64,000 nucleotides of DNA from Patescibacteria group bacterium (GTDB lineage Bacteria > Patescibacteriota > Patescibacteriia > Buchananbacterales > UBA6539), in contig JBAZSB010000003.1 of NCBI GenBank assembly GCA_041662625.1, positions 38,552 to 102,551 of the forward strand, read 5' to 3'. The position numbers and the translations under genes were made by a program. Below are positions 5,301-28,240 of this stretch, piece after piece; positions within the stretch are counted from its first letter, which is position 1; each line of letters opens with the position of its first letter. The notes under the pieces were generated by a model. That model was given only the letters and a program-made list of their open reading frames with translations. It was not told the DNA's origin and made no database searches.

Positions 5301-8300
5301 CTGAATTAATCCGGACACTCCCGAATTTTGGCACTAATTTGGTGCCTAATTCCAGTTTTGAAGATTGGTCCGATCCTAGCGGCGTACCCCAAGGCTGGCA
5401 AACCGGTGAAAATTGGAACAGCGCTAACACTAGTTTCGAGCAGGCTGAAGGATATAGTGATAACTATAGTCTGAAATTGATTAAAAAAACCATTAGCACT
5501 AATGATGATAATTTTTCCCGAGATTTTGAAATTCCACTTTTTGCTTTAAAGCCCAATACTACCTATCGTGTTTCCTTTATGGCTAGGTCTGACCAAGATG
5601 CGGCTGCTAGTGACAGACTTTGGTATACAGAGATTTTATCAAACCATAATCCTGATTATTATTGCAGTTTGGATCAAGCTGAAAATTGTTACATCGGTAC
5701 GGTAGACGAAAATGAAGCACACTGTACCAGTCTTAATAAAGGGCATTGTGTATTTGATTATGATGGGGTGTTTATAGGCAGCCAGAGATTATTCCCACTC
5801 ACCGACGAGTGGCAGCAATTTGTTTCTGCTTCATTTACGACTCGTCACTTTAGTTATGATTTTAAATTTTCGATTTCGAGTCACTATACTAACCCAGCTA
5901 AACCACTTTATATCGATAATGTTCAAGTTGAAGAAGTGGAAACTAACAATGCGGCCGTTTCTAGTTACAGTGATTATGGCACGAAAAATTTAGTTTATCT
6001 TAAAAAACCGCCGGCCACTTTAGCCTGCCATGGCTATACTATTGACCGACCCAGCCCGGATGTTTTAACTGGTGTCAACCAAACCCAATGTAACGGAGAA
6101 AATATGGTCTGGCGGAAGTTCTGTGCGAATGCGACTGATGCCACTGACGCTGGTGAAGCTTGCACTAATAACGGTGAATGTGACAGCAACAGATGCAATC
6201 CCCAAGGCGCCAACGGCTGTGATGCTTCGGGTCAATTCTGTTGTCATTATACTGATTGGCCCGAGTGTTCTAATTTTGCCATGTACTGTCAGGAAGATGA
6301 AGTGGGCTGCGAACTTTACCGGCCTGTACTTGGCGGTCAGTCAATCCCCGCCAAAGTATCAATTCAAGATTATTGTCCGGCTGAATGCGTGGGTTACGAA
6401 GCTTATAAACAATCAACTAGTCATTTTGAAAGCCAGGAATCTTTGGAGTATTTTATTCCAAAAACAGCTAAAAGTTGTACGGCTAGCCAGGTTGGCTGTA
6501 CTGAATTTACCAATTTAGATGAGGTCGCTCGAGGTGGGGAAGGTAAAGAATATTATCAATATTTGCGTCAGTGCCGTAAGCCGGATCAGTCTGATGCCAA
6601 TTGCCAAAATTTTTACAATTGGCAGGGCTCGGATGAAACTGGTTACCAGTTGAAATTATATAATCTGACCGGCCAAACCCCAAGCGGGGGAGCACCCTTA
6701 GAGGTCAATACTGATCCGACGTTGTGGCCGACTTATTGGTGTGAGGTCAAAACCGATAGTGGTACTAATGGTCCCGATTGCTGTGATGGCCCAGAAGATT
6801 TAGCTGCTAATCCGTTCTGTAAAGAATTTTATGCCGCTAGTGGTGAGATTTATTATCGAATCTATGCCAATACCATCAGCTGCTCGGATGATTGTCATCC
6901 GTTGCGCCAGACGCGTTTGGAAAAAGATGAAAGTTTAGCTCGAGCTAATTGTGATAATACTAAGGGTACATGGGAGGGAGATGCCTGTGTTTATCACGCA
7001 ATACCGCAAGAAGGAACTCGTTGTTCAGCTAGCGCGGCTGGTTGCCGGGAATATCGCGGTAATGCGGGTGGCAATATTTTCACCGCTTTTGCCGATAATT
7101 TTGAATCCGGCGATACAGTTGGTTGGCGTTTTGGCGCCATCAGCAGCGAGGCTTTAAGTATTACCGGCCATTCAATCAAAACCCAATTACTCGGTTCTGA
7201 CACTGATAGTAATGGCACGATCGATACTTATGACAAAAGGGTAGTAACTTCTTGGGCCAGTTTATGGAAAGCCGGAACAACTGAATACATTAACGCTAAT
7301 ATTGTCTCCTGTACTGATACCAATTCAACCGACGTTCCATTTTGTGATACTACTCATACCAGTAATTGTTATGATCTGCAATTGGGTAAGTGTATTGCCA
7401 AGGAAACGGAGAATAATGAGACTTGCTACGTGGCTTTGGGTGAAAAAAGTTGTGGTGTAATGGGTAATGTTTTATTACCTAGTCGGACCTATCTGATTTC
7501 TTTCTGGGCCAAGAATGCCAGTGGGGTGGCAGATATCACCCTTGATTTGCTGGGAGCGGTTGATCCAGCGCCATTAGCTACTATCAGTCTCAGTCCCGAA
7601 TGGAATTATTATAGCCTCGGCCCATTTACTACTAGAGCTCAGCCTGATTTTGACTTAAGCGCCCGCTTGCGTTTCATAGGCTCAGTGAGAGACAGTAATC
7701 CCGATAGCCCTAGTCTTGTTGATTTTTATGTTGACAACGTGGAAATTAAAGAAGTGGCTGATTATGTTTATGTCATTAAGAATTCCTGGCAGACGCCAGC
7801 CAGTTGCGACACTAATCCTTGGACTTTGCCCCAGCCAACTCCCGCCCCGCAATTTATGCTTGGCTGTAAACAATATCTTGATTCTTATAGCCGGACCCAT
7901 AATTTAAAATCTTTTACCAATCTATGCCGCCTTGAGGCCGTTGGCTGTGAAGCTTTAATTGATACCTTTAATTTAACTTCACCTTTTGCCAAAGTCTTTA
8001 ATGAAAATGATGCTAATTCTGATGTCAGTATTCCGGCCGATCGGTTAGTTTATTTGGTCAATCGGACTAATTATCAGTGTCCTTCGACCAAGAAAGGCTG
8101 CCAAGCCGTTGGCCAGCCGACTATTAATGTTAATCAGGAAGCAGTTAATTATAAAACCGCTTATTTAATTAATGATCCCAATCAGTATAGTTCTTCCTTA
8201 TGTTCTAATCCTGAGGTGGGTTGTGAAGAATGGAGTACTGGCAATGGCTTTTCTTATTTCAAAGATCCGGGCCAACGGGTTTGTGAATACCGTTTAGCTC

Positions 8301-11300
8301 CAGGCCAAACTCAATCTAACTGGTTTAAATTTGGTTCAAGCGCTCAAACCGGCGATTGTCCTTTGGTTCAGCCATCCGTTGGTGTGCCACATCCGACTGA
8401 CAACTGGGTTGGCCTCTGTGCATCTGAAGCCAGCTCCTGTAACCAATTTATTGATCCGGTGAGTTTAATGAGTAAGAATTTAGTCTTCAATGCTGATTTC
8501 AAAACTAATGTGGTTACAACCGATACGCCTGATGTGCCGGACGGCTGGCAGGCTAATCTGACGACCGACGGTTTAGTTCAGTCTCTGAGCCTTCAACATG
8601 GTAATTTGTATACCTTGAGTTTTACCAGCAATAAGAATCTTTCTCTGGCAGATAATGATTTACATTTTGAAATTAGGAATTGTCCGCAAATTACTTCTTT
8701 TGATCATTCCTTAAATAACGTTTGTATTAATACTGTTACGGGGGAGCCGGTTCAGCCGCAGAAACTTTGTCAGAGTGATGACAATTGTGATGTGACTAAT
8801 CATCAAATTTGTTCGACTAATGTTTTGGTGATTTCACAAGGGGCTTATACCGGGGATAGTCGGACTTCCACTCAAATCGATAACTTTCCCCAAAATCAGA
8901 TCAGTTATTCTGGCAGAGTTTTTGTCACGCGTGATTGCAACGCTAAAATTATGATTACCAATGTGGGTGGGACGATTGAGAGTATTATTGGTACTGCCGC
9001 TAACAATTATACCGACGGACTGGTCAAAGAAGTAGCCTTAAGAAAAACCGACATTAATTATGTTTTAGCTGATTCGGTTGATAAGCGTAGTTGTAATGGC
9101 ATTGTTGATCCGGAAAGATATTGCGTTTTATTTAATGATCGCAGTGAGGTTAATTATAAATTGGGTGAAGATGACTTTAGTTACTTAGGTTTTGATGCTG
9201 ATGTGAGCGGTATTAATGTCAATAATGGTCTGCCGGTTTTACAATGCGCGGGTAACTGCGATTCTAATGCCGTTTTAAATGTTAGACCCGATCGAACCTG
9301 CGAAACCTGGCTGGCTTGTAACAGTTATGCCACCGTCGTTAACGCCGAAGGCGGGGAAGAAAGGCAGTGTTTAAACCTTGGCCTCTGTAATCTTTTGGCC
9401 GATGACGGTAGCTGTCTTAACTTTTTGGAAACTAGCCACGGCGACGCCCGAAAAGATTTTTATCAAGAACCCGAACAAATCCAAAATCTAAGCGGCTACA
9501 GTAAAGCAGGCTTGGAAGTCAGCGATACCTTTAATAAGACTATTTATGGCTATTACCCTTATGTGGAAATGTCCCAGGAAGGGGGAGCAACTAGTATTAC
9601 TAATAGCAACTTTGATTCAGTCTTTTCCGAAGGCAAAGAGCCGCTGGGTTGGGCCGAGTATGAATCTAAGGACAGCCAAGGTTGGCAAAATTTTAAATAT
9701 ACTATTGGTACTGATTTTAACTCGGCTTTGGAAGGTGGCTATTTGCAACTCAACACTTTTTATCAGGTTGTTTCCGAAGACGTTGATTTGGAAAAAGGAA
9801 CCAATTATATTTTGGGCGGCTGGATTAACACTTTGGAATTAAAGCATAACAACCTTAATGATTCCCAGCTTTTCACTCAGATTTGCTATAAACTTAATAA
9901 TCAGCTTGATTTAACTTGTCCGCCGGAATTGAAAGTTTTTGCTGGTTTAGGTTGGCAATATGTGACGGCGACATTCAACTCTGCTGGTAGCACTGCTTTG
10001 AAGATCGTACTGAAAAATAATGCCGGTGATATTTTGGCTTGTCGTGACGGCCATGAGGATACGGCGTGCGCCATCAGCGGTTATTCTTTGCTTGATGAGA
10101 TTTTATTAAAGCCAGTCTTAAAGGTAAAAAATCAGACTCCTGATAATTTGCGTGATTTTATTGCCCGGAGCTGCCGGCTTTATCCAGATTTTGATTCGTT
10201 AGCCTGTCAGTATTTTGAAGAAAATGTTTTGCATCGTGGTATTTTTGGCTACTGCCTGACGCAAGATCCAAATAATTTAAAACAGTGCCTCCAGTGGTGG
10301 CCAGTTGATCAGATTGGCGGCCAGTTAACGGATGAAATTTTGGCTTATAATATTCAAAGCCCGCTTTATTATTGTGTAGAGAAAGGTGAGAGACAAATCT
10401 TTAGTGAAGATACTGAATTCTCTTTTCTAGTTTCTGATTTTTCCGGTAATTTTACCGATGCTTATGGCCTCAGTGCCCAACTTGTACCTTTTGAAATATC
10501 TGAAGATTATCGGCCAGCTTTTCGTTACCCTTATGTCCGGCAATTTAGTGTTCGCCCCCAAATTTTCCCGCGTAATGATTGGCTTATTCCAGGTGTTGGT
10601 TTTAGACTCCTGGCTTTGGGCGATACGTTAATTGAAGTTAATATTTTTGGTGATCAGGGCCTTAAGAATGATCCTTTTGATTTGACCATTGGCCCAACTG
10701 GAAATAGAGGAATTTTGTTAGCTCCTTGGGGAGTACTAGTTGCGATCCCAGTTGAAATGCTTTACGCTTTTATTGCGGCTGATCATGGAGCATTAGATAT
10801 GGATGCACACTATATTGGAGAAATGAATGAAGGGATTGAGTCTTTGGGTCTTGGTGAAATTTTACCGGATAATGCTGTTGAACTTAATCTTTATTTCATC
10901 TGGTCTTGGCCTAACGGTATAAATCCGGAAAATATCGGGCGGGCCGAAAGTACCATCCAGACTCTGCGGCAAGTTGGTGATATTGCTAAGTTACTTTTAG
11001 CCCTTGGCGGGGCGAGTGCTAATTCAGCTCAACATGATGACGCCTGGGAAGAAGAAGGTGTTCCCGTATTTGGTATTTTGGAGGGAGAGGAGACGAGTCT
11101 CAATATTGTTTTTGGGTCGCTGGTTGGTGTCAAAATAGCGACAGAGCAGGATCCAATGTATAGTGGCATTGCTGAAGATCCGGTACCTGATATCCCGGGG
11201 GATATTTATGGTGGAATAGTAGTGATGGTGGAGGAAACTACCGATGGTGATTTGGCGCCGGGAATGAAACTTGATTTCATACCAAGTGAGGCCAAAGCCG

Positions 11301-12832
11301 GGTATTGCCAGAAACTAGTCCAGGTGGTGACTACGGCCGGCAATAACAAAGCTTGGACTGGTCGGGTTCAGTCGGGTTCTTCTTATATTTTATCTGACGC
11401 TAAAAGCCAAAAGAATTATTTCTTGTATTATGATCCATTTGACTATAATGAAATGCTTGAGGCGGCGGAAGAATGCTATGGTGTATGTAATGTCAATGGC
11501 CAATATTGTGAAATCCTTGGCCCAGGCAGTGAATGTCCTTGTCCAATGGGTGCGCCCCAGCAGATTGCTCAGGAGTGTATGAATGGCAAGTGTTATGATT
11601 GGAGTGGCAGTGATGCCAATACAATACCAACCAGTTATGACTGTACCGGTGATCCTCCTATTACCTTAAATGGAGAGTGTGATACTTATTTGCCTTTGAC
11701 TAATGAAACACCAACCGGAGATTGTATTTTAGATGCCACTTGCATTGGCGGCAAAAAAGAAGGTAATAGTTGCGAGACTGATGATGATTGCACTGATTAT
11801 AGTCCAGCTTGTTTTATCTACCAATCTTCTGATTTTCAGCCATTTGGTGCTATGGTTCCGCCGGCTGAAAGCCAATACCCAGAAAACTGGGATAGCCGAG
11901 TATCCACTTACCGCCAACCATTATTCTATGAACCGCCTTTGATTTCCCTGGCTGAGCCTTATCAGGCACGGATGGGTGAAGATCATACCGCTGACAGCTT
12001 AATGCGAATCTTTTTGAAGACTTATGGTGTCTGGAGCTGGGATGAAGGCGAATCGGATCTAGCAATTGATGACCATTATGAGCCTCTTGATCCTAATGAT
12101 CCTGATGATGCGGTTGATCTTCTGAATTATTCTTGGAATATTGTCAGCGACTGGGATAATACTTCTAAATTTCCGGATGCTGGTTATTGCACCAGTAATA
12201 TTCGGCCAGTTGAACCAACTCCGCCCACTTTGGATGATGTCACTCTTTGCCGCATTCGGCCAATAATTGATCCACTTAATATTTCGATTAATAATAGCCG
12301 CTCGACTGAGATTGGTAATGGTGATCCAGATGCTGTAATCAGCGGGGCCGGTTCGATTAAATTAAGTTTCACGGTCAAAGTTGATCCAAATCAATTGCCT
12401 ATTGGCTCTTACTCCGTAGATTGGGGCGACGGCGAGGTTTCTTCAGTTAATGGTGTTTCTTTGCGTGCCCGGCCCAACGTGGATAATCCTTTAACGTTGT
12501 ACCATGCGTATGATTTCTGGCAATTGCGCCGGCGCTGTAATGATGTAGGAGCATCTTGCACTGATGAGGCGGCCTGGGATGATGGCACCAGTATGCTTTA
12601 CTGCCCGGATGAAAATTCTTGCCGAATAAGATTAAGGATCAAAGTGCGGGATAACTGGAATGCTGAGACCTGCCTACCCGGGTTATCTGAAGTAAATTGT
12701 GCAGTTTCCCGGTGCAATACTTCACTAAGGACTTGTAATTATTCTAATCCTTGTCCCTCCGGCGAACTTTGTTTACCTGACAATAAATATATTCCGTTAT
12801 TAGATTATATCTTAGTCCAGCCAAGGCAATAA
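2336..12832 (+). CDS. giant (3498 aa) Cys-rich secreted/surface protein with multiple CBM4/9-like carbohydrate-binding-type modules
   Basis: Uninterrupted 10.5-kb ORF. N-terminal signal-anchor (VVLVSMVLSLITPALIYPEP). At least 4-5 modules start with N(P/S/A)SFE/NADFK...W...GW, typical of CBM_4_9. Cys-rich segments throughout. Confidence 0.7.
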   Translation: MIKEIKPKLNLPAATQEADQTISNKWFLAFKKIVTEVVLVSMVLSLITPALIYPEPARASNPTGAPPVTKQYPPKPTEVQVHDASGVKVIQDESGKTQAEVKKGTDNVTEAQKKDTKELTKWEVFKKNLDKMYQKLRNAVKVAAAEAFSYMLNTFAYDTATWLASGGEGQQPMFFTEDWGEYLTNLVDNAAGTFLEKLGNNSWINLNLCTPSLGLKISIGLGLGNLRRPKQPDCTVTKMIKNWKSWAESPNFLSQFDDIFDPKSNDIGIAAKAFGLYYQKVEEDWLAGIFRRKEGEGFKSVGDSIADTILTPGTVTAEGAKQLTRTETGSKGEEVKVEYGNIFNIAIATFINTLLGKLFERLFKKGLVSSKDDKTIDLSGLGNLLARGATNQDLYTGESGIELYSGEKAARLRFLDLLQAGAKQGGAYDVLTKLVYCSDPENPGPDECAIKQDFRSAIERKLTLREAIDQGLIDGNAPFGFMDWDASALYRGISYRSITILRTFRVVPVGWEIAAQTINKFDPGKTYSLNDLIARFADESSDNLFYGLIDPEWVLTLPDHFCKLEGYGSKVVYEGVIGGDDANSDGDFTDANDVPPQRTVGRAEYCADYQSCLQKDESGNCQYYGYCTEERRIWDLQGKGCKPYFNTCQTFQRSDNKVFSFLENTLDFNGCSADNAGCQWYCQVFNPSSDIWTCTNEHIVIDPATGAIDAERVLKPCNLAGGCLVSTSCEIAEGDSSCVDNTNGTNLSISNSCNSGSRWWVGDKCIINPADALCTIKQGDVGCTLTGCESFANLLLNPSFETAASPGNLADKWSTSSGSLTYFERAAGASERIHAGKNSLRFFSYGLSVNETVSAAELELPVGNYYTFSGYVYDYLNAGAITLEVGGSGVTSAQSRVSTKGNGWQLLTFDFLVDKESSPGSGKGKVQVKIIVSGDQVGGTAWFDDFRITQSCVVENVTLTLIGTVGVNESKIHLDRDAQSCDAQNVGCSELIRTLPNFGTNLVPNSSFEDWSDPSGVPQGWQTGENWNSANTSFEQAEGYSDNYSLKLIKKTISTNDDNFSRDFEIPLFALKPNTTYRVSFMARSDQDAAASDRLWYTEILSNHNPDYYCSLDQAENCYIGTVDENEAHCTSLNKGHCVFDYDGVFIGSQRLFPLTDEWQQFVSASFTTRHFSYDFKFSISSHYTNPAKPLYIDNVQVEEVETNNAAVSSYSDYGTKNLVYLKKPPATLACHGYTIDRPSPDVLTGVNQTQCNGENMVWRKFCANATDATDAGEACTNNGECDSNRCNPQGANGCDASGQFCCHYTDWPECSNFAMYCQEDEVGCELYRPVLGGQSIPAKVSIQDYCPAECVGYEAYKQSTSHFESQESLEYFIPKTAKSCTASQVGCTEFTNLDEVARGGEGKEYYQYLRQCRKPDQSDANCQNFYNWQGSDETGYQLKLYNLTGQTPSGGAPLEVNTDPTLWPTYWCEVKTDSGTNGPDCCDGPEDLAANPFCKEFYAASGEIYYRIYANTISCSDDCHPLRQTRLEKDESLARANCDNTKGTWEGDACVYHAIPQEGTRCSASAAGCREYRGNAGGNIFTAFADNFESGDTVGWRFGAISSEALSITGHSIKTQLLGSDTDSNGTIDTYDKRVVTSWASLWKAGTTEYINANIVSCTDTNSTDVPFCDTTHTSNCYDLQLGKCIAKETENNETCYVALGEKSCGVMGNVLLPSRTYLISFWAKNASGVADITLDLLGAVDPAPLATISLSPEWNYYSLGPFTTRAQPDFDLSARLRFIGSVRDSNPDSPSLVDFYVDNVEIKEVADYVYVIKNSWQTPASCDTNPWTLPQPTPAPQFMLGCKQYLDSYSRTHNLKSFTNLCRLEAVGCEALIDTFNLTSPFAKVFNENDANSDVSIPADRLVYLVNRTNYQCPSTKKGCQAVGQPTINVNQEAVNYKTAYLINDPNQYSSSLCSNPEVGCEEWSTGNGFSYFKDPGQRVCEYRLAPGQTQSNWFKFGSSAQTGDCPLVQPSVGVPHPTDNWVGLCASEASSCNQFIDPVSLMSKNLVFNADFKTNVVTTDTPDVPDGWQANLTTDGLVQSLSLQHGNLYTLSFTSNKNLSLADNDLHFEIRNCPQITSFDHSLNNVCINTVTGEPVQPQKLCQSDDNCDVTNHQICSTNVLVISQGAYTGDSRTSTQIDNFPQNQISYSGRVFVTRDCNAKIMITNVGGTIESIIGTAANNYTDGLVKEVALRKTDINYVLADSVDKRSCNGIVDPERYCVLFNDRSEVNYKLGEDDFSYLGFDADVSGINVNNGLPVLQCAGNCDSNAVLNVRPDRTCETWLACNSYATVVNAEGGEERQCLNLGLCNLLADDGSCLNFLETSHGDARKDFYQEPEQIQNLSGYSKAGLEVSDTFNKTIYGYYPYVEMSQEGGATSITNSNFDSVFSEGKEPLGWAEYESKDSQGWQNFKYTIGTDFNSALEGGYLQLNTFYQVVSEDVDLEKGTNYILGGWINTLELKHNNLNDSQLFTQICYKLNNQLDLTCPPELKVFAGLGWQYVTATFNSAGSTALKIVLKNNAGDILACRDGHEDTACAISGYSLLDEILLKPVLKVKNQTPDNLRDFIARSCRLYPDFDSLACQYFEENVLHRGIFGYCLTQDPNNLKQCLQWWPVDQIGGQLTDEILAYNIQSPLYYCVEKGERQIFSEDTEFSFLVSDFSGNFTDAYGLSAQLVPFEISEDYRPAFRYPYVRQFSVRPQIFPRNDWLIPGVGFRLLALGDTLIEVNIFGDQGLKNDPFDLTIGPTGNRGILLAPWGVLVAIPVEMLYAFIAADHGALDMDAHYIGEMNEGIESLGLGEILPDNAVELNLYFIWSWPNGINPENIGRAESTIQTLRQVGDIAKLLLALGGASANSAQHDDAWEEEGVPVFGILEGEETSLNIVFGSLVGVKIATEQDPMYSGIAEDPVPDIPGDIYGGIVVMVEETTDGDLAPGMKLDFIPSEAKAGYCQKLVQVVTTAGNNKAWTGRVQSGSSYILSDAKSQKNYFLYYDPFDYNEMLEAAEECYGVCNVNGQYCEILGPGSECPCPMGAPQQIAQECMNGKCYDWSGSDANTIPTSYDCTGDPPITLNGECDTYLPLTNETPTGDCILDATCIGGKKEGNSCETDDDCTDYSPACFIYQSSDFQPFGAMVPPAESQYPENWDSRVSTYRQPLFYEPPLISLAEPYQARMGEDHTADSLMRIFLKTYGVWSWDEGESDLAIDDHYEPLDPNDPDDAVDLLNYSWNIVSDWDNTSKFPDAGYCTSNIRPVEPTPPTLDDVTLCRIRPIIDPLNISINNSRSTEIGNGDPDAVISGAGSIKLSFTVKVDPNQLPIGSYSVDWGDGEVSSVNGVSLRARPNVDNPLTLYHAYDFWQLRRRCNDVGASCTDEAAWDDGTSMLYCPDENSCRIRLRIKVRDNWNAETCLPGLSEVNCAVSRCNTSLRTCNYSNPCPSGELCLPDNKYIPLLDYILVQPRQ

Positions 12833-16381: not shown

Positions 16382-17773
16382 ATGACTAATGATCAAAAAC
16401 AAAAAATAAATAATCTGATTAGCAAATTAAATGCCGATTTATCGGATATTAATTTTTTTAAAAAAACGCAGGAAGAACTAACTGATTTAATTGTTCAAAA
16501 CAGCGCAGAGCAAGCTTATTATTTGGCGATTTTTCTGGATTATTTTCTTAAACAAAGAAAAAATTTTGAAAAAGATTATCCACAATTATACCGAGATTAT
16601 CAGACGATTATTAGTAAGGCCAAATGGGTTTGCCTCCCTTTACTTTCGTTGCAAGAGGTTATTGGTTTATTTGAGGAAAATTTGGCTGAAGCTTTGCTTG
16701 ATCCTGATATTGTAGTATGGGAAAAATTAAGGGCATTTTTAGTTGCCCATATTTTACTTGATGAACGCGATAATATCAAAAGGGAACTGAGGGCGACTTT
16801 ATTGAGAAATAATCAAATTTTAACCCAAGGTGATATTATAGCGGAAAATCAATCTCATTCCGGCACAATTAGTAACTGGTTGCGTGATTATAACCAAAAG
16901 TTAGGAGCGGCAAAGTTAGAAAGTAAAAATATTGAATTGTATCAATATATCACTAATGATAGCAATATTAAGAAGTTGAACCCTGAAGAAAGAAGATGTC
17001 TAATTAGTTTATTTACTTTATATGAGAGGCTAAAGGCTTCTTCTTCAGAGGTGGCTGGTTATGAAGGTTCATTAGGCATATCTGATGAAGGAGAAGGTAA
17101 ATTTGCTATTATTTCGGATGGCGAAGTAGTAAGTCTTGATAAGAGATCAGAAAAAATGATTGAGCAAGCACAAGATATCATTGATGTTGCCTTAGGTAAA
17201 AAACCAGCTTCCATTTTGAAAAAATCAAAAGTTGTTGAATCACCAATTCAGTCAGTTGATAATGAACCGCCAAAACAAACGCTGATAGAAAAGGAGATTT
17301 TGGCCGCTTATCAAGGCGACCAAAAACAGCAGCAAGCTATTGCTAAAGAAGAAGCAAAAATCACTAAAAGTTTTGGTACTGACTTGATGAAGATCCGGCA
17401 AGAGTTTTTCCTTGCCGTTCAGAATAAGAATGTTAGCCGCACTATTGCCACTCTGAATATTTTAACTAAACAAAATGATCTGGAAAACTTCGTGAAAACT
17501 GATACTAAATTAAGTCAATTTCTAACCGCGATTTGGGAGAAGCGCTATGGTAAGGAGTTTACTGCCGAGTTTAAACAAAAGCCGGGTCAACTGAAGTTCG
17601 TCCGTTTATTCCTGCGCTATGTTTTGGAAGAACGGTTGGGACTTTCAGTCAGTGAGGCGGCACGAGTGGGCTTACAACTGGGTAATATCTTTGTTAGTTT
17701 GGGCCAGAAAGATTATAATAAAATGGCGTATTTTGATGTTGAGGCGAAAGCTTTTAATTGGTTTGAGGATTAG
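16382..17773 (+). CDS. hypothetical protein (463 aa), last gene of the giant-protein operon
   Basis: Long ORF, no TM helix, no recognisable motif. Confidence 0.5.
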   Translation: MTNDQKQKINNLISKLNADLSDINFFKKTQEELTDLIVQNSAEQAYYLAIFLDYFLKQRKNFEKDYPQLYRDYQTIISKAKWVCLPLLSLQEVIGLFEENLAEALLDPDIVVWEKLRAFLVAHILLDERDNIKRELRATLLRNNQILTQGDIIAENQSHSGTISNWLRDYNQKLGAAKLESKNIELYQYITNDSNIKKLNPEERRCLISLFTLYERLKASSSEVAGYEGSLGISDEGEGKFAIISDGEVVSLDKRSEKMIEQAQDIIDVALGKKPASILKKSKVVESPIQSVDNEPPKQTLIEKEILAAYQGDQKQQQAIAKEEAKITKSFGTDLMKIRQEFFLAVQNKNVSRTIATLNILTKQNDLENFVKTDTKLSQFLTAIWEKRYGKEFTAEFKQKPGQLKFVRLFLRYVLEERLGLSVSEAARVGLQLGNIFVSLGQKDYNKMAYFDVEAKAFNWFED

Positions 17774-17958
17774 GGTGGTATAATGGTAGGAAGGTAGGAT
17801 TGTAGATTGGGAGAAAAATTAAGTTCACATACAATCAACCTGAAGAAGTAATGAAAATGCTAAATAAAATGATTAACAATAGAACGTTAGACTAGTAGAT
17901 CTGTTAGGTTGCCTAATAAATTACCAACCTACCGATCTACAGTCCTACCGATCTACTT
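17774..17958 (+). mobile_element. degraded IVS-like element: GGTAG/CTACC-rich inverted-repeat arms enclosing only the last 18 codons of a four-helix-bundle gene
   Basis: 17817-17895 matches the 5' flank (aaattaagttcacatacaatcaac) and the 3' end (gaagaagtaatgaaaatgctaaataaaatgattaacaataga...) of the intact copy at 19222-19641. The right arm cctaccgatctacagtcctaccgatctac is nearly identical to 19683-19710. Confidence 0.6.
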
Positions 17959-18001
17959 ATTAACTTCCTGCTTGGGGACAGGGCAGAAAGGAAAAGATAA
18001 A

Positions 18002-19177
18002 ATGTCAAAGACTAAAGAAAAAAACCACATTTTTACTTCGGAATCAGTCAGCGAAGGTCATCCGGATAAAGTTTGTGACCAAATTTCCGATGCCATCTTG
18101 GATGAGCTGATTCGTCAGGACAAAAATTCCCATGCCGGAATTGAAACTTTAGCTACGACCGGTCTGGTAGTGGTGGCCGGAGAAATCAGAACGAAAGGTT
18201 ATGTTGATATTGCTAGCATCGTGCGAAGAACGATTAAAGAAATCGGCTATGATGATCATACTATTGGTTTTCATTGGGAAGATTGTGGCGTGATGGTGGC
18301 AATTGATGAACAAAGTCCAGACATTGCCCAGGGCGTGGATAGCGGCCGCGGCAAATTTAAAAAACAAGGCGCTGGTGATCAGGGTTTAATGTTTGGTTAT
18401 GCCTGCAAAGATACGCCCGAATTGATGCCACTGCCCATCATGTTGGCACATCAAATTGTTCAAAGACTCTCTCAGCTTCGGAAAAACAAAACAATGCCTT
18501 ACCTGCGGCCCGATGGCAAGTCAGAGGTTGCGGTTGAATATGTTAATAATAAGCCCAAGCGAGTTGATACGATTATTGTTGCTGCCAGCCACGACTGCGA
18601 AGTTGATGAAAAGAAAGTTGAAAGAGAAGTAATCAATAAAGTCATTAAACCGATTTGTAAAAAATATATCGATCGTAAAACCCGCTATTTCGTTAATGCC
18701 ACTGGTCGTTTTGTCAAATGTGGCCCGCCGGCTGACACTGGTTTAACCGGCAGAAAAATCATTGTTGATACTTATGGTGGTCATGGTAGTCATGGTGGCG
18801 GTTGTTTTTCCGGCAAGGATCCGTCAAAAGTTGACCGCTCGGCTTCTTATATGGCAAGATACGTGGCAAAAAATATTGTTGCCGCCGGAATTGCTGACCG
18901 GTGTGAAGTTCAGATGGCCTATGTCATTGGCGTGGCCGAACCAATCAGTATTTTGGTAGATACTTTTAGTACTGGTAAAATTTCTGACGAAAGAATTGTC
19001 AGTTTAATTAGAAAGTATTTTGATTTAACCCCGGCCGGGATTATTACCAAGCTAAATCTGTTAAGGCCAATTTATAAAAAGACTGCTGCCTACGGCCATT
19101 TTGGCCGCAAGGACCCGGATTTTACCTGGGAAAAGACAGATTTAGCCAAAGTCTTAAGAAAAGCAGCAGGTTTGTAA
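18002..19177 (+). CDS. metK: S-adenosylmethionine synthetase
   Basis: [34 protein letters not shown] is the canonical MetK N-terminus, with [12 protein letters not shown] and DTYGG motifs. SD-like ggaaaggaaaagataaaATG. The ORF-track start at 17909 lies inside the upstream repeat and is rejected. Confidence 0.9.
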
Positions 19178-19179
19178 AG

Positions 19180-19712
19180 TCGGTAGAACGGTAGGTCAGT
19201 AGGTTGGTAGAACGGTAGAGAAATTAAGTTCACATACAATCAACATAGCGCGCCTAAATAATAATTTATGAAATTATGGCGTTGCTAGTCGATTATAGAA
19301 AGTTGATTGTTTGGCAAAAGGGAGTAGATTTAGTTGTTGAAGTCTACAAATTAACTGAGTTACTTCCCAAGTCAGAGTTGTACGGTTTAACTTCACAAAT
19401 AAGAAGGTCGGCAGTTTCTATTCCATCAAACATTGCCGAAGGCCGAAGAAGGTGTAGTCTAGCCGAGTATAGACATTTTCTACAAATTGCCTTTGGTTCC
19501 GGTGGCGAATTAGAAACCCAGATAGAAATTTGTAAAAGGCTGCCAGGAATAAAAGAGTTCGACTATAGATCAGTAGATTTGCTGCTTGAAGAAGTAATGA
19601 AAATGCTAAATAAAATGATTAACAATAGACAGGTGGATTAGCAGATAGGTAGAACTATAAGGTTGTTTAATAACCTACTAACCTACCGATCTACAATCCT
19701 ACCGATCTACTT
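19180..19712 (+). mobile_element. intact IVS-like element: inverted-repeat arms (GGTAG-rich left, CTACC-rich right) enclosing a four-helix-bundle protein gene
   Basis: The left arm gtcggtagaacggtaggtcagtaggttggtagaacggtag and right arm cctactaacctaccgatctacaatcctaccgatctac are imperfect reverse complements. Same architecture as the degraded copy upstream of metK. Confidence 0.55.
19276..19641 (+). CDS. four-helix-bundle protein (23S rRNA intervening-sequence protein family, TIGR02436-like)
   Basis: About 120 aa. N-terminal (Y/F)xKL(I/K)VWQK, central IAEG(R/S), C-terminal MINNR. Paralog at 62933-63289. Confidence 0.7.
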   Translation: MALLVDYRKLIVWQKGVDLVVEVYKLTELLPKSELYGLTSQIRRSAVSIPSNIAEGRRRCSLAEYRHFLQIAFGSGGELETQIEICKRLPGIKEFDYRSVDLLLEEVMKMLNKMINNRQVD

Positions 19713-20855
19713 ATGACTGATCAAAATCAAAACCAAACTGATGATTTTTTCAATCTAATCAAGGAAGAACAGAAGGTTGAAAACCCCTTCGCTAATGATG
19801 AAATTTTATTTCGTGACAAAAGTGGTCAATTGAAGGTTTTAAAAGGTGGGGTAGTTTTGGATTTTGATAAGCAAAAAGTTCCTCAGCCACCAAGCAGTGC
19901 TCAGGTTAGTCCCCAGGTTGCCATACCAGTTAAACCTGTTCAAGTTAAAACCATTGAACCAGTTGAAGAAGAACTTATCAGCAAACCATTGAAGCTTGAC
20001 GAAGAGGTGAAGCGGATAATTGATAAATCCGGAATTCAATTGGAAACAGCTGAGGCGGATCAGCGTTTTAAAAATATTATCACCGCTCGACTCAAAGATA
20101 TTAGAGATCAAGTTCAAACCAGAGATATGCTTTTGAGTTCACCTTTGGTCGGTGGCATGGGGTTTGATTCACAAAAAGCTGATTCTATCTTAGCCATTAT
20201 TAATCAGGAGTTTGATGATTTGCATAGTCAGTTGAGGCAGTCGGTTAGTAATGAGCCGTTTTCTGATCTTAAAACCGAAGCGAAAAAACTTCTTGAAGAA
20301 CCGCTGGTTGAACCACCGGAAATAGTTTTCCAGCCGGCAGGGGCCCCAGAAGCTTCTGCGTCCGCCCAGACTCAACCAAAGATAGCACCAGTGATGGAAA
20401 CGAAAACTGAAGTTGTAATTAAAGAGCCAGTTGAATTTGAACCAGTGCCAGAAAGAGTCAGCATCAGTCGGCCGTTAGTGAGTCGAGATGAAACCAAGCC
20501 AAAAATTGAAGATGTTAAATTCCAACCGCGTTTAACTGGCCCAGTTGAAGAAATTAGATCAATGACGTTGACGGATTTCCGTCGCCTCGGAACAACGCCC
20601 CAGGAGGCCATTGAAAAGATTTTAGCCAAAATTGAGCTTTTGGAAGAAGAATCATTTACGCGAAAAGTTGAAGCTATCAGAGCTTGGAAGGAAAATGAAA
20701 TTCAGCAACTTTATCTTGAATTAGGGGATCAGAGTATGGAAGAGAAAAGACCAATTGCCGAAATTATCAATCGGCGAGCGCAAGAAAATATTCCCACTTT
20801 AAGCCAAGAGGAAGTTGAATCCATCATTGAATTAAATCAGAGGTTAAGATATTAA
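19713..20855 (+). CDS. hypothetical Pro/Glu-rich protein (380 aa)
   Basis: Long ORF starting immediately after the IVS-like right arm. Acidic and proline-rich, no TM helix. Confidence 0.45.
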   Translation: MTDQNQNQTDDFFNLIKEEQKVENPFANDEILFRDKSGQLKVLKGGVVLDFDKQKVPQPPSSAQVSPQVAIPVKPVQVKTIEPVEEELISKPLKLDEEVKRIIDKSGIQLETAEADQRFKNIITARLKDIRDQVQTRDMLLSSPLVGGMGFDSQKADSILAIINQEFDDLHSQLRQSVSNEPFSDLKTEAKKLLEEPLVEPPEIVFQPAGAPEASASAQTQPKIAPVMETKTEVVIKEPVEFEPVPERVSISRPLVSRDETKPKIEDVKFQPRLTGPVEEIRSMTLTDFRRLGTTPQEAIEKILAKIELLEEESFTRKVEAIRAWKENEIQQLYLELGDQSMEEKRPIAEIINRRAQENIPTLSQEEVESIIELNQRLRY

Positions 20856-24056: not shown

Positions 24057-24647
24057 ATGAGTCGACGCAATAAAATAATTATCATCGTGGTGGTGGCAGT
24101 AGTTGTTTTATTATTAATAATAATATTTGTCTGGTGGCTGGGTCAAAGACAAAAATCAATCAGTCCGGGAGAAACAAATGCCAATGTGGGCCTTAATATT
24201 CCAGCAGGACTGCCGTCAGCCTCCACTGGCTTGACCAATCAGATTGAGCCAACTGCTTCCGAACCAAATCTAGAAGCTAGCCTCAAGGCCATTGCCTCAA
24301 CTTTTGCTGAACGGTTTGGTAGTTATTCTAATCAAGGGAATTTTTCTAATCTTGATGACCTGAAGGATCTAATGACTGTAAGAATGAAGAGTGCAATTGG
24401 TGATTATAAGGCCGATCAACAAGCTTCGATGGGCGGCACTGGCTACTATGGTGTTACAACTAAGGCAATTTCGCCACAAATTACTAATTTTGAAGAAAGT
24501 TTAGGCCGAGCCGAAATAATAGTTAAAACCCAAAGGCAAGAATCTTTCGGTAATACAACTAATCCTAAAGTTTTCTACCAAGATTTGAAACTAAATTTGG
24601 TCAAGACTGAGGCGGGTTGGAAAGTTGACGTCGCGCAGTGGCAGTAG
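24057..24647 (+). CDS. membrane-anchored hypothetical protein; possible VirB8/TcpC-like (NTF2-like) component
   Basis: N-terminal TM helix IIIIVVVAVVVLLLIIIFVWWL, then a soluble domain of about 150 aa ending in GWKVDVAQW. The assignment is an inference from position and size only. Confidence 0.3.
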   Translation: MSRRNKIIIIVVVAVVVLLLIIIFVWWLGQRQKSISPGETNANVGLNIPAGLPSASTGLTNQIEPTASEPNLEASLKAIASTFAERFGSYSNQGNFSNLDDLKDLMTVRMKSAIGDYKADQQASMGGTGYYGVTTKAISPQITNFEESLGRAEIIVKTQRQESFGNTTNPKVFYQDLKLNLVKTEAGWKVDVAQWQ

Positions 24648-24736
24648 TAAAATGGTACTACTAATTATAAACCACTAAGGGCGGGGAAGTGGTATAAAAT
24701 CAACATAGCGCTGCTTAAGATTAAAGTTAACAAGCT

Positions 24737-25399
24737 ATGTTCGATTTCAAGAAGTTATTTATTGATTTACTTTTCCCGATTGAATGTTTAGGCTGTGGTG
24801 AAAAAGAGCATTGGCTTTGCCCCGCCTGCTCAGCAAAAATTGAAATCAAGTTTAAAAACCAGCCGGAAATATTTGCCCCAAATCAGAGTTTAACCGGAGT
24901 TTGGTTAGCTGCTGATTATCGTCAGCCGCTTTTAATTAAAGTTTTGCATACTTTTAAATATAGCTTTGTTGTCTGTCTGGGTCAGGATTTAGCTGAGGTT
25001 TTAATCAGATTTTTGTCATTTAAAATCAAACAAAAAGAAATTTCTGGCTTTGATTTAGTCATTGCTATCCCATTAGCAAAACGAAGGCGACTTTGGCGAG
25101 GCTTTAATCAGGCGGAAATTTTGGCTGCTGAAATCAGTCGGCATTTTAGTTGGTCGAACAAATCAGATTTACTTTTTCGAAAGTATTATAACCGGCCTCA
25201 GGTTGGCTTGAAAGCCGTTGACCGGATCATTAATGTAAAAGGAATTTTCTGTGTTCAGCGTAGTGATTTATTAAAAAACAAGAAGGTTCTATTGATTGAT
25301 GACGTGGTCACTACCGGTGCCACGATGCAGGAATGTGCTAAAGTGATTAAAGAGGCTGGCGCCAAGGAAATTTGGGGATTAGCCGTGGCGCGTGGTTAA
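24737..25399 (+). CDS. comF: ComF-family (ComFC) competence protein, phosphoribosyltransferase domain with N-terminal zinc finger
   Basis: CLGCG...CPAC zinc ribbon; PRTase motif VLLIDDVVTTGATMQECAKVI. Confidence 0.75.
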   Translation: MFDFKKLFIDLLFPIECLGCGEKEHWLCPACSAKIEIKFKNQPEIFAPNQSLTGVWLAADYRQPLLIKVLHTFKYSFVVCLGQDLAEVLIRFLSFKIKQKEISGFDLVIAIPLAKRRRLWRGFNQAEILAAEISRHFSWSNKSDLLFRKYYNRPQVGLKAVDRIINVKGIFCVQRSDLLKNKKVLLIDDVVTTGATMQECAKVIKEAGAKEIWGLAVARG

Positions 25400-26175: not shown

Positions 26176-27000
26176 ATGAAAATAGCATTATCTACCCCAG
26201 TTTCAGAAATTAGCCGAGTGGGGAAAACGACCGCCATTCGTTTAAAAAAATTAGGCATTGAGACCGCTTCTGATCTCATTTTTTATTATCCTTTTCGTTG
26301 GGAAGATTTTAGTCAGATTTCGGAAATTGCTGAACTTACTCCCAGCTCAATTGTAACAATTCGGGGCAAAATTCAGCTGATAAAAAATCGTCGGAGTCCG
26401 GTAAAAAGAAAATTTTTAACCGAAGCTTTGGTGGCTGATAAAACCGGTTCAATTAAAGTTATTTGGTTTAATCAGCCATTTTTAGCCGAAGTTTTAAACC
26501 CGGGTGAGTTGGTTTATCTGTCCGGTAAAGTTGATTTTGACCGTTATACCATGCAATTGATTAATCCGGTTTATGAAAAAGTTACTAAAGGAACTACGAC
26601 TCATACGGCCCGGCTAGTGCCAATTTATTCATTAACTAGTAATTTAACCGAAAAACAAATTCGTTTTTTGATTAAATCAGTTTTGCCTGTGGCTAAATTA
26701 ATTAAAGATTGGTTACCCGAGTCAGTTATTAAAAATAATAATTTGATTAATTTAACTTTAGCTTTAAATCAAATTCATTTTCCGGCCGATCAAAAAATAT
26801 TAGCTCAGGCAATTCAGCGGCTTAAATTTGATGAACTATTTTTATTTCAGTTGCAGATCGTTTTAAGTCGGATTGAGATGAGCTCCAGTATCGCTGAACC
26901 AATAAATTTTTTTGAGGCCAAAACCAAAGAATTCGTCAGTTCTTTACCTTTTCGCTTAACTGATGATCAAAAAAAAATAAGCTTGGCAAATTATTTCTGA
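26176..27000 (+). CDS. recG: ATP-dependent DNA helicase RecG, N-terminal (wedge/OB) part; frame lost at an A-run
   Basis: Ends ...LPFRLTDDQKKISLANYF*. The homologous RecG motif continues in the +1 frame. Confidence 0.65.
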   Translation: MKIALSTPVSEISRVGKTTAIRLKKLGIETASDLIFYYPFRWEDFSQISEIAELTPSSIVTIRGKIQLIKNRRSPVKRKFLTEALVADKTGSIKVIWFNQPFLAEVLNPGELVYLSGKVDFDRYTMQLINPVYEKVTKGTTTHTARLVPIYSLTSNLTEKQIRFLIKSVLPVAKLIKDWLPESVIKNNNLINLTLALNQIHFPADQKILAQAIQRLKFDELFLFQLQIVLSRIEMSSSIAEPINFFEAKTKEFVSSLPFRLTDDQKKISLANYF

Positions 27001-27019: not shown

Positions 27020-28240
27020 ATGAATCGTTTACTCGAAGGCGAAGTCGGTTCAGGTAAAACAATGGTGGCAACTTTAGCTATGTTTAATGTTAGCTTAGCT
27101 AATTTACAAACGGTTTTAATGGCGCCAACTGAAATTTTGGCCGCCCAACATTATAAAACTATTAGTAGCCTACTTAAGGCAAGTGGAGTCAAAGTTGCTC
27201 TTTTAACCCGATCGCAGCAAAAAATTAATGACCAAACAGTGACCAATCATAAAATTTTAGATCAGCTTTTGGCCGGAGAGATTAAAATAATTGTTGGCAC
27301 CCATGCCTTGATTCAAGAAAGAGTCGAATTTAAAAAACTTGCTTTAGCGATCATTGATGAGCAGCATCGCTTTGGAGTGGAGCAGCGAAAATTATTAAGA
27401 GAAAAATCAGGCGATCCAAAAATTACCCCTCATTTACTTTCAATGACCGCTACCCCCATTCCGCGATCTTTAGCTTTGACTTTGTATGGTGATTTAGATT
27501 TATCGATTATTAAAGAAATGCCAAAAGAACGAAAGAAAGTAATTACCGAAATTGTTGACCCAGCCAAACGTCAGCAGACTTATAATTTTATCCGTGATCA
27601 AATCCGTGATGGTCGTCAGGCGTTTGTTATTTGTCCTTTAATTGACCTTTCAGATAAATTAGGTGTTAAGGCCGTGACTGAAGAATATGAGAAGTTAACC
27701 AAGGAAGTTTTTCCGGAATTAAAAATTGCGATGCTCCATGGTAAATTAAAGGCTGCCCAAAAAGAAAAAATAATGGCTGATTTTTTGGCTAAACAAAGCG
27801 ATATTTTAGTCTCAACTTCAGTGGTTGAGGTCGGAGTTGACGTTCCTAATGCCAGCGTGATGTTAATTGAGGGCGCGGATCGGTTTGGTCTGGCTCAGCT
27901 TCACCAATTTCGCGGTCGGGTCGGGAGAAGCAACTTCCAATCTTATTGTTTTCTTTTTTCTGATAACCCAAGTCAAAAAACTAAAACTCGTCTCCAAGCT
28001 TTAATCTCAGCTAAAGATGGCTTTGAATTAGCCGAACTTGATTTACAACTGCGGGGGCCAGGCGAAATTTATGGTACGGTTCAATCTGGTCTGCCAGTTT
28101 TTAGAATTGCTCAATTATCTGATCATGAATTGATTGTTAAAACCAAAAATGCGGCTGAGCTGGTGGCACCGCATTTGGAAAAATATCCAATTTTGCAGGA
28201 GAAAATTAATCAGTTAATCAAAGAAGTACATTTAGAATAA
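27020..28240 (+). CDS. recG: ATP-dependent DNA helicase RecG, helicase-core part
   Basis: PMNRLLEGEVGSGKT (motif I), DEQHRFGV (motif II), helicase C-terminal motifs QLHQFRGRVGR. Upstream in this frame the sequence reads AWQIISDLQKNKP, continuing the RecG linker. Confidence 0.8.
   Translation: MNRLLEGEVGSGKTMVATLAMFNVSLANLQTVLMAPTEILAAQHYKTISSLLKASGVKVALLTRSQQKINDQTVTNHKILDQLLAGEIKIIVGTHALIQERVEFKKLALAIIDEQHRFGVEQRKLLREKSGDPKITPHLLSMTATPIPRSLALTLYGDLDLSIIKEMPKERKKVITEIVDPAKRQQTYNFIRDQIRDGRQAFVICPLIDLSDKLGVKAVTEEYEKLTKEVFPELKIAMLHGKLKAAQKEKIMADFLAKQSDILVSTSVVEVGVDVPNASVMLIEGADRFGLAQLHQFRGRVGRSNFQSYCFLFSDNPSQKTKTRLQALISAKDGFELAELDLQLRGPGEIYGTVQSGLPVFRIAQLSDHELIVKTKNAAELVAPHLEKYPILQEKINQLIKEVHLE

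Follow-up and report, generated by a model that had tools for sequence, protein, structure and literature searches.

Two probable copies of an intervening-sequence-like gene cassette at the operon junctions around metK in a member of the Patescibacteria

A 64,000-nt stretch of DNA from a Patescibacteria group bacterium (contig JBAZSB010000003.1, positions 38,552 to 102,551; hereafter, the window) contains a conserved operon in which metK, the gene for S-adenosylmethionine synthetase, stands between two units bordered by inverted arrays of short tandem repeats. The unit downstream of metK (19178-19718) is intact, and encloses a gene of the PF05635 family for a 121-aa four-helix-bundle protein. 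The upstream unit (17774-17958) is degraded: it is the same element after an internal deletion of 342 nt, equivalent to 19245-19586 of the intact unit. The intact cassette lies in sense and exactly fills the gap between two operon genes. The favoured and most likely reading is that of a selfish cassette, co-transcribed with the operon and resembling the intervening sequences (IVSs) of ribosomal RNA. The features, in window coordinates, are these:

16382-17773, + strand: upstream 463-aa operon gene; its TAG stop codon (17771-17773) lies directly next to the left array of the degraded unit and is base-paired in the helix predicted there
17777-17813, + strand: degraded left array, with 8-nt units GGTATaat, GGTAGgaa, GGTAGgat, tGTAGatt, and gGGAG
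17816-17839, + strand: 24-nt spacer, an exact copy of 19221-19244
17841-17895, + strand: remnant of the four-helix-bundle open reading frame (ORF), its last 17-18 codons plus TAG
17921-17956, + strand: degraded right array, with CTAC cores at 17929, 17937, 17945, and 17953; partner of 17777-17810
17959-18001, + strand: metK leader, with its own Shine-Dalgarno sequence
18002-19177, + strand: metK, a conserved operon member; stop codon TAA at 19175-19177
19182-19221, + strand: intact left array of five 8-nt GGTAGnnn units; the helix begins at 19178, directly past the metK TAA
19221-19275, + strand: leader of the four-helix-bundle gene, holding the conserved motif AATCAACATAGCGC at 19238-19251
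19276-19641, + strand: four-helix-bundle gene, 121 aa (PF05635 / TIGR02436)
19639-19666, + strand: proximal mini-array TAGcagaTAGgTAG, which includes the ORF stop codon, plus loop
19674-19710, + strand: intact right array of five CTAC cores with a period of 8 nt; the helix extends to 19718
19713-20855, + strand: downstream 380-aa operon gene, without a Shine-Dalgarno sequence

Profile searches assign the intact ORF firmly, both to Pfam PF05635 (E=3.9e-37; 127.1 bits against a cutoff of 33.8) and to TIGR02436 (122.9 bits; cutoff, 24). Its left arm consists of the units GGTAGaac, GGTAGgtc, aGTAGgtt, GGTAGaac, and GGTAGaga, and the five CTAC cores of its right arm recur with an exact 8-nt period, at 19675, 19683, 19691, 19699, and 19707. 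Comparison of the two units shows 83% identity between the left arms (17777-17839 vs 19182-19244) and 86% between the right arms. The 24-nt spacer accounts for two exact matches where none is expected by chance, and the common 3' end of the ORF (17841-17900 vs 19587-19646) is 90% identical. GGTAG periodicity in the window is restricted to these four arms; with one mismatch allowed, they hold 15 of the 16 window matches to GGTAGNNNGGTAG, against 1.3 expected. Together, the two units are probably copies of one IVS-like cassette, a PF05635 gene within inverted arrays of about five 8-nt units. The upstream copy has the appearance of a non-autonomous relic, with most of its ORF deleted and its helix kept. 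A third, diverged copy is present elsewhere in the same species (related contigs L002-L005), and the arms of this paralogue (L002) differ from those in the window.

Both units are predicted to fold through arm-arm helices once their flanks are included (z = -4.2 and -5.2). The intact helix joins 19178-19227 to 19667-19718 with 40 pairs, five of them G-U; the degraded unit forms 36 arm-arm pairs (duplex, -39.9 kcal/mol). At the base of the intact helix, the bases AGUC (19178-19181), directly 3' of the metK stop codon, pair with the G of the next AUG (19713-19715) and with the second codon, ACU. A preliminary description of this DNA had reported GGTAG-rich and CTACC-rich inverted arms around the 121-aa gene, and a second unit (17774-17958) with the same arms and 5' flank but an internal deletion. 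Both observations hold, the first now with a five-unit tandem structure and the second with the identities given above, including those from the arm alignment that it had proposed. It had also regarded arms unable to pair as fatal to its reading; the in silico folds, computed with flanking RNA, pair the arms of both units. What it overlooked were the tandem 8-nt arrays, the helix running from the metK stop codon to the start codon of the next gene, and the generality of the layout.

Other pairings are predicted nearby. The mini-array at 19639-19666 could instead pair locally with the right array in a hairpin (-16.5 kcal/mol), a structure better developed in the orthologues L006, L007, and L009. 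The cassette leader is predicted to pair with the start-codon region and with codons 9-12 of the ORF (weak, z = -1.9); this pairing of AATCAACATAGCGC is a faint hint that translation of the cassette gene is controlled. The 14-nt AATCAACATAGCGC occurs in a second exact copy at 24698-24711, upstream of a ComF-like gene (start codon, 24737), where it is predicted to pair with GCUAUGUUCGAUUU in a hairpin concealing the start codon (z = -2.4; context 24640-24760). It is kept at this junction in the orthologues L094, L096, and L100, and could be either a relic of the four-helix-bundle cassette or a shared regulatory signal. The degraded right array (17922-17956) is 87% complementary over 30 nt to the intact left array (19180-19217), so these two arrays could instead pair with each other at long range, with the entire metK coding region between them. 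Finally, the metK leader contains an element, CTTGGGGAYAGG...AAAGGAA, that is conserved in the window, L006, L007, L094, L098, and L100, and that matches no Rfam family at the gathering threshold.

The layout recurs widely. A survey of 80 further loci from genome assemblies, together with close relatives, provided 84 unique four-helix-bundle genes with full flanks. Upstream arrays of at least three TAGs spaced 6-10 nt apart are present at 74 of these 84 loci, compared with 4 of 318 control windows. Their spacing has modes of 7 and 8, they typically comprise 4-5 units (58/84 loci), and 66 of the 74 cover all three reading frames. TAG upstream and CTA downstream are the most enriched trinucleotides, each by 3.5-fold across the 84 loci. 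The units themselves vary by locus: TAGCTTG, TAGGTTG, TAGGAAG, TAGAACGG, and others. The two arms of a locus nevertheless resemble each other more than they do arms from elsewhere: the median alignment score is 27 within loci and 16 between them, and the same-locus score exceeds the 95th percentile of mismatched pairs in 37 of 84. Strikingly constant is the polarity, with the TAG array 5' and the CTA array 3' at 64 loci and the reverse at one. Polarity is irrelevant to a bare duplex, so the sequence of the single strand must matter.

Seventy of the 84 genes lie in sense between two co-oriented genes; one lies antisense in such a pair. At 57 of 64 loci, the array is where the co-oriented upstream ORF terminates, with the first array TAG as its stop codon in 24 and a later TAG in approximately 13; the array supplies the stop codon in about 37 of the 57. 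Downstream, the start codon is no more than 10 nt from the last CTA in 37 of 54 loci. Of 45 loci folded as whole segments, 43 have minimum-energy structures with 10 or more arm-arm pairs (median, 29), and the upstream stop codon is within the helix or no more than 3 nt from it in 41 of 43 folded loci, as is the downstream start codon in 35 of 43. The preliminary description had taken this protein family to be encoded usually within 23S rRNA IVSs. The survey speaks otherwise: the 70 genes mentioned above sit between protein-coding genes, and Rfam searches of 12 related loci detected neither rRNA nor any known RNA family at the units. In the window, Rfam reported only three tRNAs, with no rRNA and no known RNA family at the units.

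Many close four-helix-bundle homologues reside on contigs of only 0.5-1.5 kb, which suggests that the cassettes or their repeat arms often break short-read assemblies. In addition, a GC-rich metagenome contig (L105/L107, at about 2400-2600 and 4300-4450) carries, after a stop codon, a gene-less hairpin of GACGGTAA/GGTAGG units facing CCTACCGT; this could be what is left of a cassette, or else a hairpin of separate origin built from units of the same type. A scan of viral contigs produced no confirmed relatives.

These results suggest a model for how such a cassette might persist within an operon. Promoter and terminator scans of the cassette found nothing above shuffled or chance expectation, so the cassette most likely is co-transcribed with the operon. 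In the transcript, the two arrays would pair into a helix of approximately 40 bp, with the stop codon of the upstream gene and the start codon of the downstream gene on opposite strands at its base. With TAG in all three frames of the 5' array, the upstream ORF would always end at the cassette border; this guarantee of termination would explain the fixed polarity in the candidate phyla radiation (CPR; Patescibacteria). Translational coupling by hairpin melting is classical. Here, a ribosome terminating at the upstream stop codon would open the lower end of the helix and so uncover the occluded AUG, which lacks a Shine-Dalgarno sequence, thereby preserving the coupling of the host genes and making the insertion nearly neutral for the operon. 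By analogy with rRNA IVSs, the long helix would also be a plausible substrate for RNase III, releasing the cassette mRNA. Translation of the genes on either side would be insulated or coupled by the helix. The degraded unit has lost most of the gene but not the helix, which is what one would expect were the helix the part that the host transcript has to keep or put up with.

What might the encoded protein contribute? The gene is under strong purifying selection (dN/dS 0.07-0.09), and between the window and L006 its product is 87% identical, compared with 61% for metK. The AlphaFold model (pLDDT 90.5) comprises four helices. The top Foldseek matches are 2GSC (TM score 0.82-0.88, 47% identity; phmmer E=2e-24) and 2RLD, each deposited with five chains, followed by Avd of the diversity-generating retroelement (DGR) ribonucleoprotein. 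Residues G37, R44, S48, N52, and E55 are invariant among 25 aligned relatives, and form the conserved family motif GxxRxxxSxxxNxxE (PMC3936711). The protein is mildly basic (pI 8.5-9.8). By analogy with Avd, it probably is a pentamer that binds RNA. Membership among the DGR Avd proteins proper was rejected (NF033474, 18.3 bits against a cutoff of 80; approximately 10% identity). Pfam and NCBIfam profile searches matched the 121-aa protein to no transposase or nuclease family, and PADLOC matched it to no defence system. The 13 scanned neighbouring proteins contain no reverse transcriptase domain; template and variable repeats were not specifically searched for.

A pentameric protein and five-unit arrays invite the proposal that the arrays primarily bind the cassette's own product, one 7-8-nt unit per subunit, in competition with the helix, and so regulate expression of the cassette or its neighbours. 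The correspondence between about five units and five putative subunits is attractive by analogy: there are five units per arm in the window and 4-5 in 58 of the 84 5' arrays, the homologues 2GSC and 2RLD have five chains each, and the nearest characterised structural relative, Avd, is found within an RNA-protein complex. The basic charge and high conservation of the protein fit as well, as does a polarity (64 vs 1) showing that single-strand sequence matters, and there are precedents in TRAP (PMC4027176) and HutP (PMC2425495). However, the units differ widely across loci and phyla although the protein is 60-70% identical, which argues against sequence-specific recognition. Moreover, an array may contain anywhere from 3 to 19 units, those on the 3' side are shorter and more irregular, and the degraded copy retains its arms without encoding the protein. 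As the primary function of the arrays, protein binding thus is a tentative and somewhat doubtful proposal, and one compatible with the co-transcribed, IVS-like cassette.

The order of the operon is TrbL-like, 46x-aa gene, metK, 38x-aa gene, PrgI, TraC-like, VirB4-like ATPase, 196-aa gene, and ComF-like phosphoribosyltransferase; in gene content it resembles a type IV secretion or competence system. Rfam and a domain scan of the 13 neighbouring proteins identified no transposase, reverse transcriptase, or rRNA among the genes near the units. Six orthologous operons were compared at two junctions: A, from the 46x-aa gene to metK, and B, from metK to the 38x-aa gene. Their contents are as follows:

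Window. A: degraded four-helix-bundle unit. B: four-helix-bundle cassette
L006. A: gene-less TTCTAAT/ATTAGAA hairpin. B: four-helix-bundle cassette
L007. A: PDDEXK_3 cassette. B: four-helix-bundle cassette
L094. A: nucleotidyltransferase pair, with remnants of a GGTAG arm, of a CTAC arm, and of the 3' end of PDDEXK_3. B: PDDEXK_3 gene with CGCGGAT-type flanks
L098. A: GIY-YIG gene with palindromes. B: unrelated palindrome
L100. A: 85 nt, without a cassette. B: empty, a 25-nt spacer with the Shine-Dalgarno sequence AAGGTGA

Junction A has six different fillings across the compared loci. The metK genes of L094 and the window are 95% identical, and past the metK stop codon the two sequences share their first six bases and then diverge until the next ATG. 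In L009, an intact four-helix-bundle cassette lies directly 3' of a 42x-aa gene, at the contig end. Because the fillings differ among orthologous operons, metK is a resident gene, and it is the junctions that act as hot spots for the gain and loss of small cassettes. Sequence comparison thus shows cassettes gained, lost, and swapped at operon junctions, in the manner to be expected of selfish passengers.

This comparison sharpens two earlier proposals. The preliminary description had the two copies bracket metK, with the true start codon just past the right arm. The copies do flank metK, whose start at 18002 is 44 nt beyond the degraded unit's right array; metK as the cargo of a composite element was rejected, since it occupies the same place in orthologous operons without cassettes (L100 and L098). 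A selfish or mobile element had also been envisaged, with the caveat that a lack of further copies or of variation would speak for ancient, fixed sequence. Junction occupancy varies among related genomes, in favour of that idea; no target duplication was found on comparison with the empty L100 site, and the copies seen number two in the window and one more in related contigs.

The junctions hold other elements of note. The TTCTAAT/ATTAGAA hairpin of L006 (1540-1700), at the junction of the window's degraded unit, has the opposite polarity, with CTA-type units first. PDDEXK_3 (GxxExxY) genes fill the same junctions in L007 (1170-1740) and L094 (4020-4520 and 1700-1800), and appear also in L109-L111; in CPR, Gemmatirosa, Treponema, and Fusobacteria they carry their own inverted tandem CGCGGAT/ATCCGCG flanks. 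L094 has one intact and one decayed PDDEXK_3 copy around metK, mirroring the four-helix-bundle pair of the window. In L098 (2400-3250 and 4386-4500), a GIY-YIG gene and gene-less GTCATTGCGAG...CGAAGCAATGAC palindromes are situated at the same two junctions. Elsewhere in the window, a 3498-aa ORF (2336-12832) stands immediately upstream of the TrbL-like gene at the operon head, and recG apparently is split into a wedge-domain ORF (26176-27000) and a helicase-core ORF (27020-28240), 19 nt apart; this could reflect a frameshift, a sequencing error, or a genuine split gene.

Turnover of this kind might also be expected of an element mobile at the DNA level. The arrays would then be subterminal inverted repeats recognised by a trans-acting recombinase or nuclease, the degraded unit would resemble a miniature inverted-repeat transposable element (MITE), and the RNA helix would be incidental. 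Variable occupancy and cassette swapping agree with this, as do the nuclease-type cargos (PDDEXK_3 and GIY-YIG) at the same junctions, the CGCGGAT-type flanks that PDDEXK_3 genes keep across phyla, an internal-deletion derivative that retains both ends, and arm mismatches without a bias of G-U over A-C. Yet there is no transposase or recombinase in or near the units and no target-site duplication between filled and empty sites, the arms of same-genome copies differ (window vs L002), unlike transposon ends, and both the sense bias (70 vs 1) and the stop-to-start placement point to constraints acting on the transcript. On balance, a DNA-level element is unlikely. A transposon or MITE in the strict sense was rejected: the arms differ between paralogues, there is no target duplication, and the sole cargo is the four-helix-bundle protein, without a transposase.

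At the other extreme, the hairpins could be ordinary, fixed intergenic regulators (mRNA stabilisers, insulators, or attenuators) and the four-helix-bundle gene a normal host gene, with nothing selfish or mobile about either. In favour of this, purifying selection on the gene is strong, three diverged relatives (the window, L006, and L007) keep the copy at junction B, and the placement is compatible with operon expression. Against this stand the same junctions that are empty or filled with unrelated small genes in other operons, L094 with its nearly identical metK among them; the existence of decayed copies; and the presence of the cassette beside unrelated genes, such as leuS and CRISPR cas operons (PMC3936711), and inside rRNA. 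Fixed host hairpins are therefore a very improbable explanation.

Beyond CPR, cyanobacterial and other plasmids bear the same gene flanked by inverted heptamer or octamer arrays of other units:

Stanieria: unit GGCAGAA
Nostoc edaphicum: unit GGGAACA, five copies
Geminocystis: unit GGGAAGA
Picosynechococcus: unit GGAGATAA, between cmr2 and cmr3
Pseudanabaena: units TAGCTTT and AAAGCTA (19 copies), between cas6 and cas4
Gemmatirosa: unit GGGCAGGA

On the Pseudanabaena galeata plasmid pPg_01 (L093, 1280-1960), the unit arrays have expanded to an extreme degree within a CRISPR-Cas operon: AAAGCTA is repeated 19 times upstream and AAAGCCA about nine times downstream, preceded by a TAGCTTT array. 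A match on the Azospirillum lipoferum plasmid AZO_p2 proved to be a genuine 23S rRNA insertion (large-subunit rRNA model, 504 bits) with a homologous ORF, whose arms consist of GGACGGA/GGACAGA units. Similarly, the published Coxiella IVS, which RNase III has been shown to excise, has a 28-bp terminal stem, tandem GACAGAT heptamers whose number varies (3-4), and an ORF in decay (PMC4990558). A universal GGYAG or YAG core recognised by the protein is ruled out by the GGGAAGA units of Geminocystis, the GGAGAnn units of Leptolyngbya, and the TAGCTTG-type units in CPR. The TAG core is a feature of CPR and some cyanobacteria.

Several points weigh against the co-transcribed, IVS-like cassette as modelled here. 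Both RNase III cleavage and translational coupling are read from sequence and predicted folds. The arms are imperfect (77-91% complementary), their complementarity could simply follow from both arms sharing one unit, and their mismatches exhibit no excess of G-U over A-C (25 vs 29) and no strand-specific covariation signature of an RNA helix. The degraded helix misses the metK start codon: its last predicted pair is at 17970, and the start is 32 nt further on, with its own Shine-Dalgarno sequence. The third copy is known only from the related contigs L002-L005, with two in the window. Comparison of filled sites with the empty L100 site revealed no target-site duplication, and no recombinase was identified. 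A metagenome scan with the pattern CCTACCGATCTACNNNCCTACCG returned eight loci, all unrelated and GC-rich, and none with a four-helix-bundle gene. Lastly, the TAG core is not universal, since cyanobacterial, Gemmatimonadota, and rRNA examples use GGCAGAA, GGGAACA, GGGAAGA, or GGACAGA; supply of a stop codon therefore cannot be the general reason for the arrays. The layout, then, is real and general, extending to dozens of other bacteria; the mechanism is one that we infer.

To our knowledge, IVS elements and S23p proteins have been without a known function or mobility mechanism for about 30 years. With most family members at mRNA operon junctions in a stop-helix-start geometry, this old question becomes tractable. 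One might go further, and view rRNA IVSs as only the best-known case of widespread selfish "transcript-embedded cassettes": a four-helix-bundle or PDDEXK_3 gene within inverted arrays of 7-8-nt units, which inserts stop-to-start, supplies the stop codon, hides the next start codon, and is rendered harmless by ribosome-driven helix opening, RNase III excision, or both, with a pentameric protein binding the units in the manner of TRAP or HutP to control the process or its spread. In so full a form this generalisation is speculative, and more apt to prove wrong than right.

No description of operon-junction four-helix-bundle cassettes with tandem-unit, stop-supplying arms was found in open-access papers and preprints, and an earlier description is possible. 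Earlier papers describe PF05635 genes as "associated" with CRISPR-Cas and DGR loci (PMC3936711, PMC10053308), and those inside cas operons were read as a functional association (PMC3936711). If these genes are operon-junction passengers, such associations imply no shared function. The cassettes and their decayed relics also represent a share of the intergenic sequence in the tiny genomes of Patescibacteria, and may break short-read assemblies.

Among known systems, MITEs and small palindromic elements (Correia/NEMIS and repetitive extragenic palindromic [REP] elements) likewise have inverted ends, deleted non-autonomous copies, intergenic positions in transcription units, and RNA hairpins. The cassette differs from MITEs in that its ends are tandem-unit arrays differing between copies, its cargo is a conserved non-transposase, and its copy number, as judged from the window and related contigs, appears low. 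REPs carry a GTAG tag (PMC3733652), a likeness to the arrays here; in contrast, no partner REP-associated tyrosine transposase (RAYT) was seen, although RAYT presence was not tested. Assignment to REP/RAYT elements was rejected, as the GTAG cores recur every 8 nt in gene-enclosing arrays and are limited to four arms in the window. Short tandemly repeated heptamers (STRR) are intergenic tandem repeats of cyanobacteria; they occur in the same genera whose four-helix-bundle genes have heptamer-array flanks, and so provide a lead.

In leader RNAs, TRAP binds (G/U)AG repeats (PMC4027176), and HutP binds UAG repeats spaced 4 nt apart (PMC2425495). As in the cassette, periodic UAG triplets in single-stranded RNA are set against an alternative hairpin, and the gene for a ring-forming homo-oligomer, a putative one in the cassette, is close by. 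With its 4-nt gaps between UAG triplets, HutP has a repeat period of 7, the commonest in the arrays described here. Their folds are unrelated, however, and only the cassette repeats have a complementary array and enclose the gene for the protein itself. Avd (PDB 4DWL and 8UB7) is nearer in structure, with the same four-helix-bundle fold (TM score about 0.75); it is pentameric and works in an RNA-protein complex, and the closer homologues 2GSC and 2RLD are five-chain deposits.

The closest likeness is to the rRNA IVSs of Coxiella (helix 45), Leptospira, and Azospirillum. These share a homologous ORF that reads in the direction of the host transcript, a stem of 28-40 bp, arms of tandem 7-8-nt units, and an ORF that decays while the stem persists. 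In contrast to them, the window units reside in an mRNA operon, their TAG units double as the upstream stop codon, and the base of the helix is a stop and a start codon rather than rRNA helix 25 or 45; and RNase III excision has been shown for the rRNA elements and is a prediction for those in the window. Terminal inverted repeats that form an enclosing stem are present here as there (40 pairs in the intact unit and 36 in the degraded one), and insertion into a 23S or 16S rRNA helix, which defines an IVS, is replaced by a position between protein-coding genes. The window elements thus appear to have the architecture of real IVSs placed in mRNA, and are IVS-like rather than members of the class.

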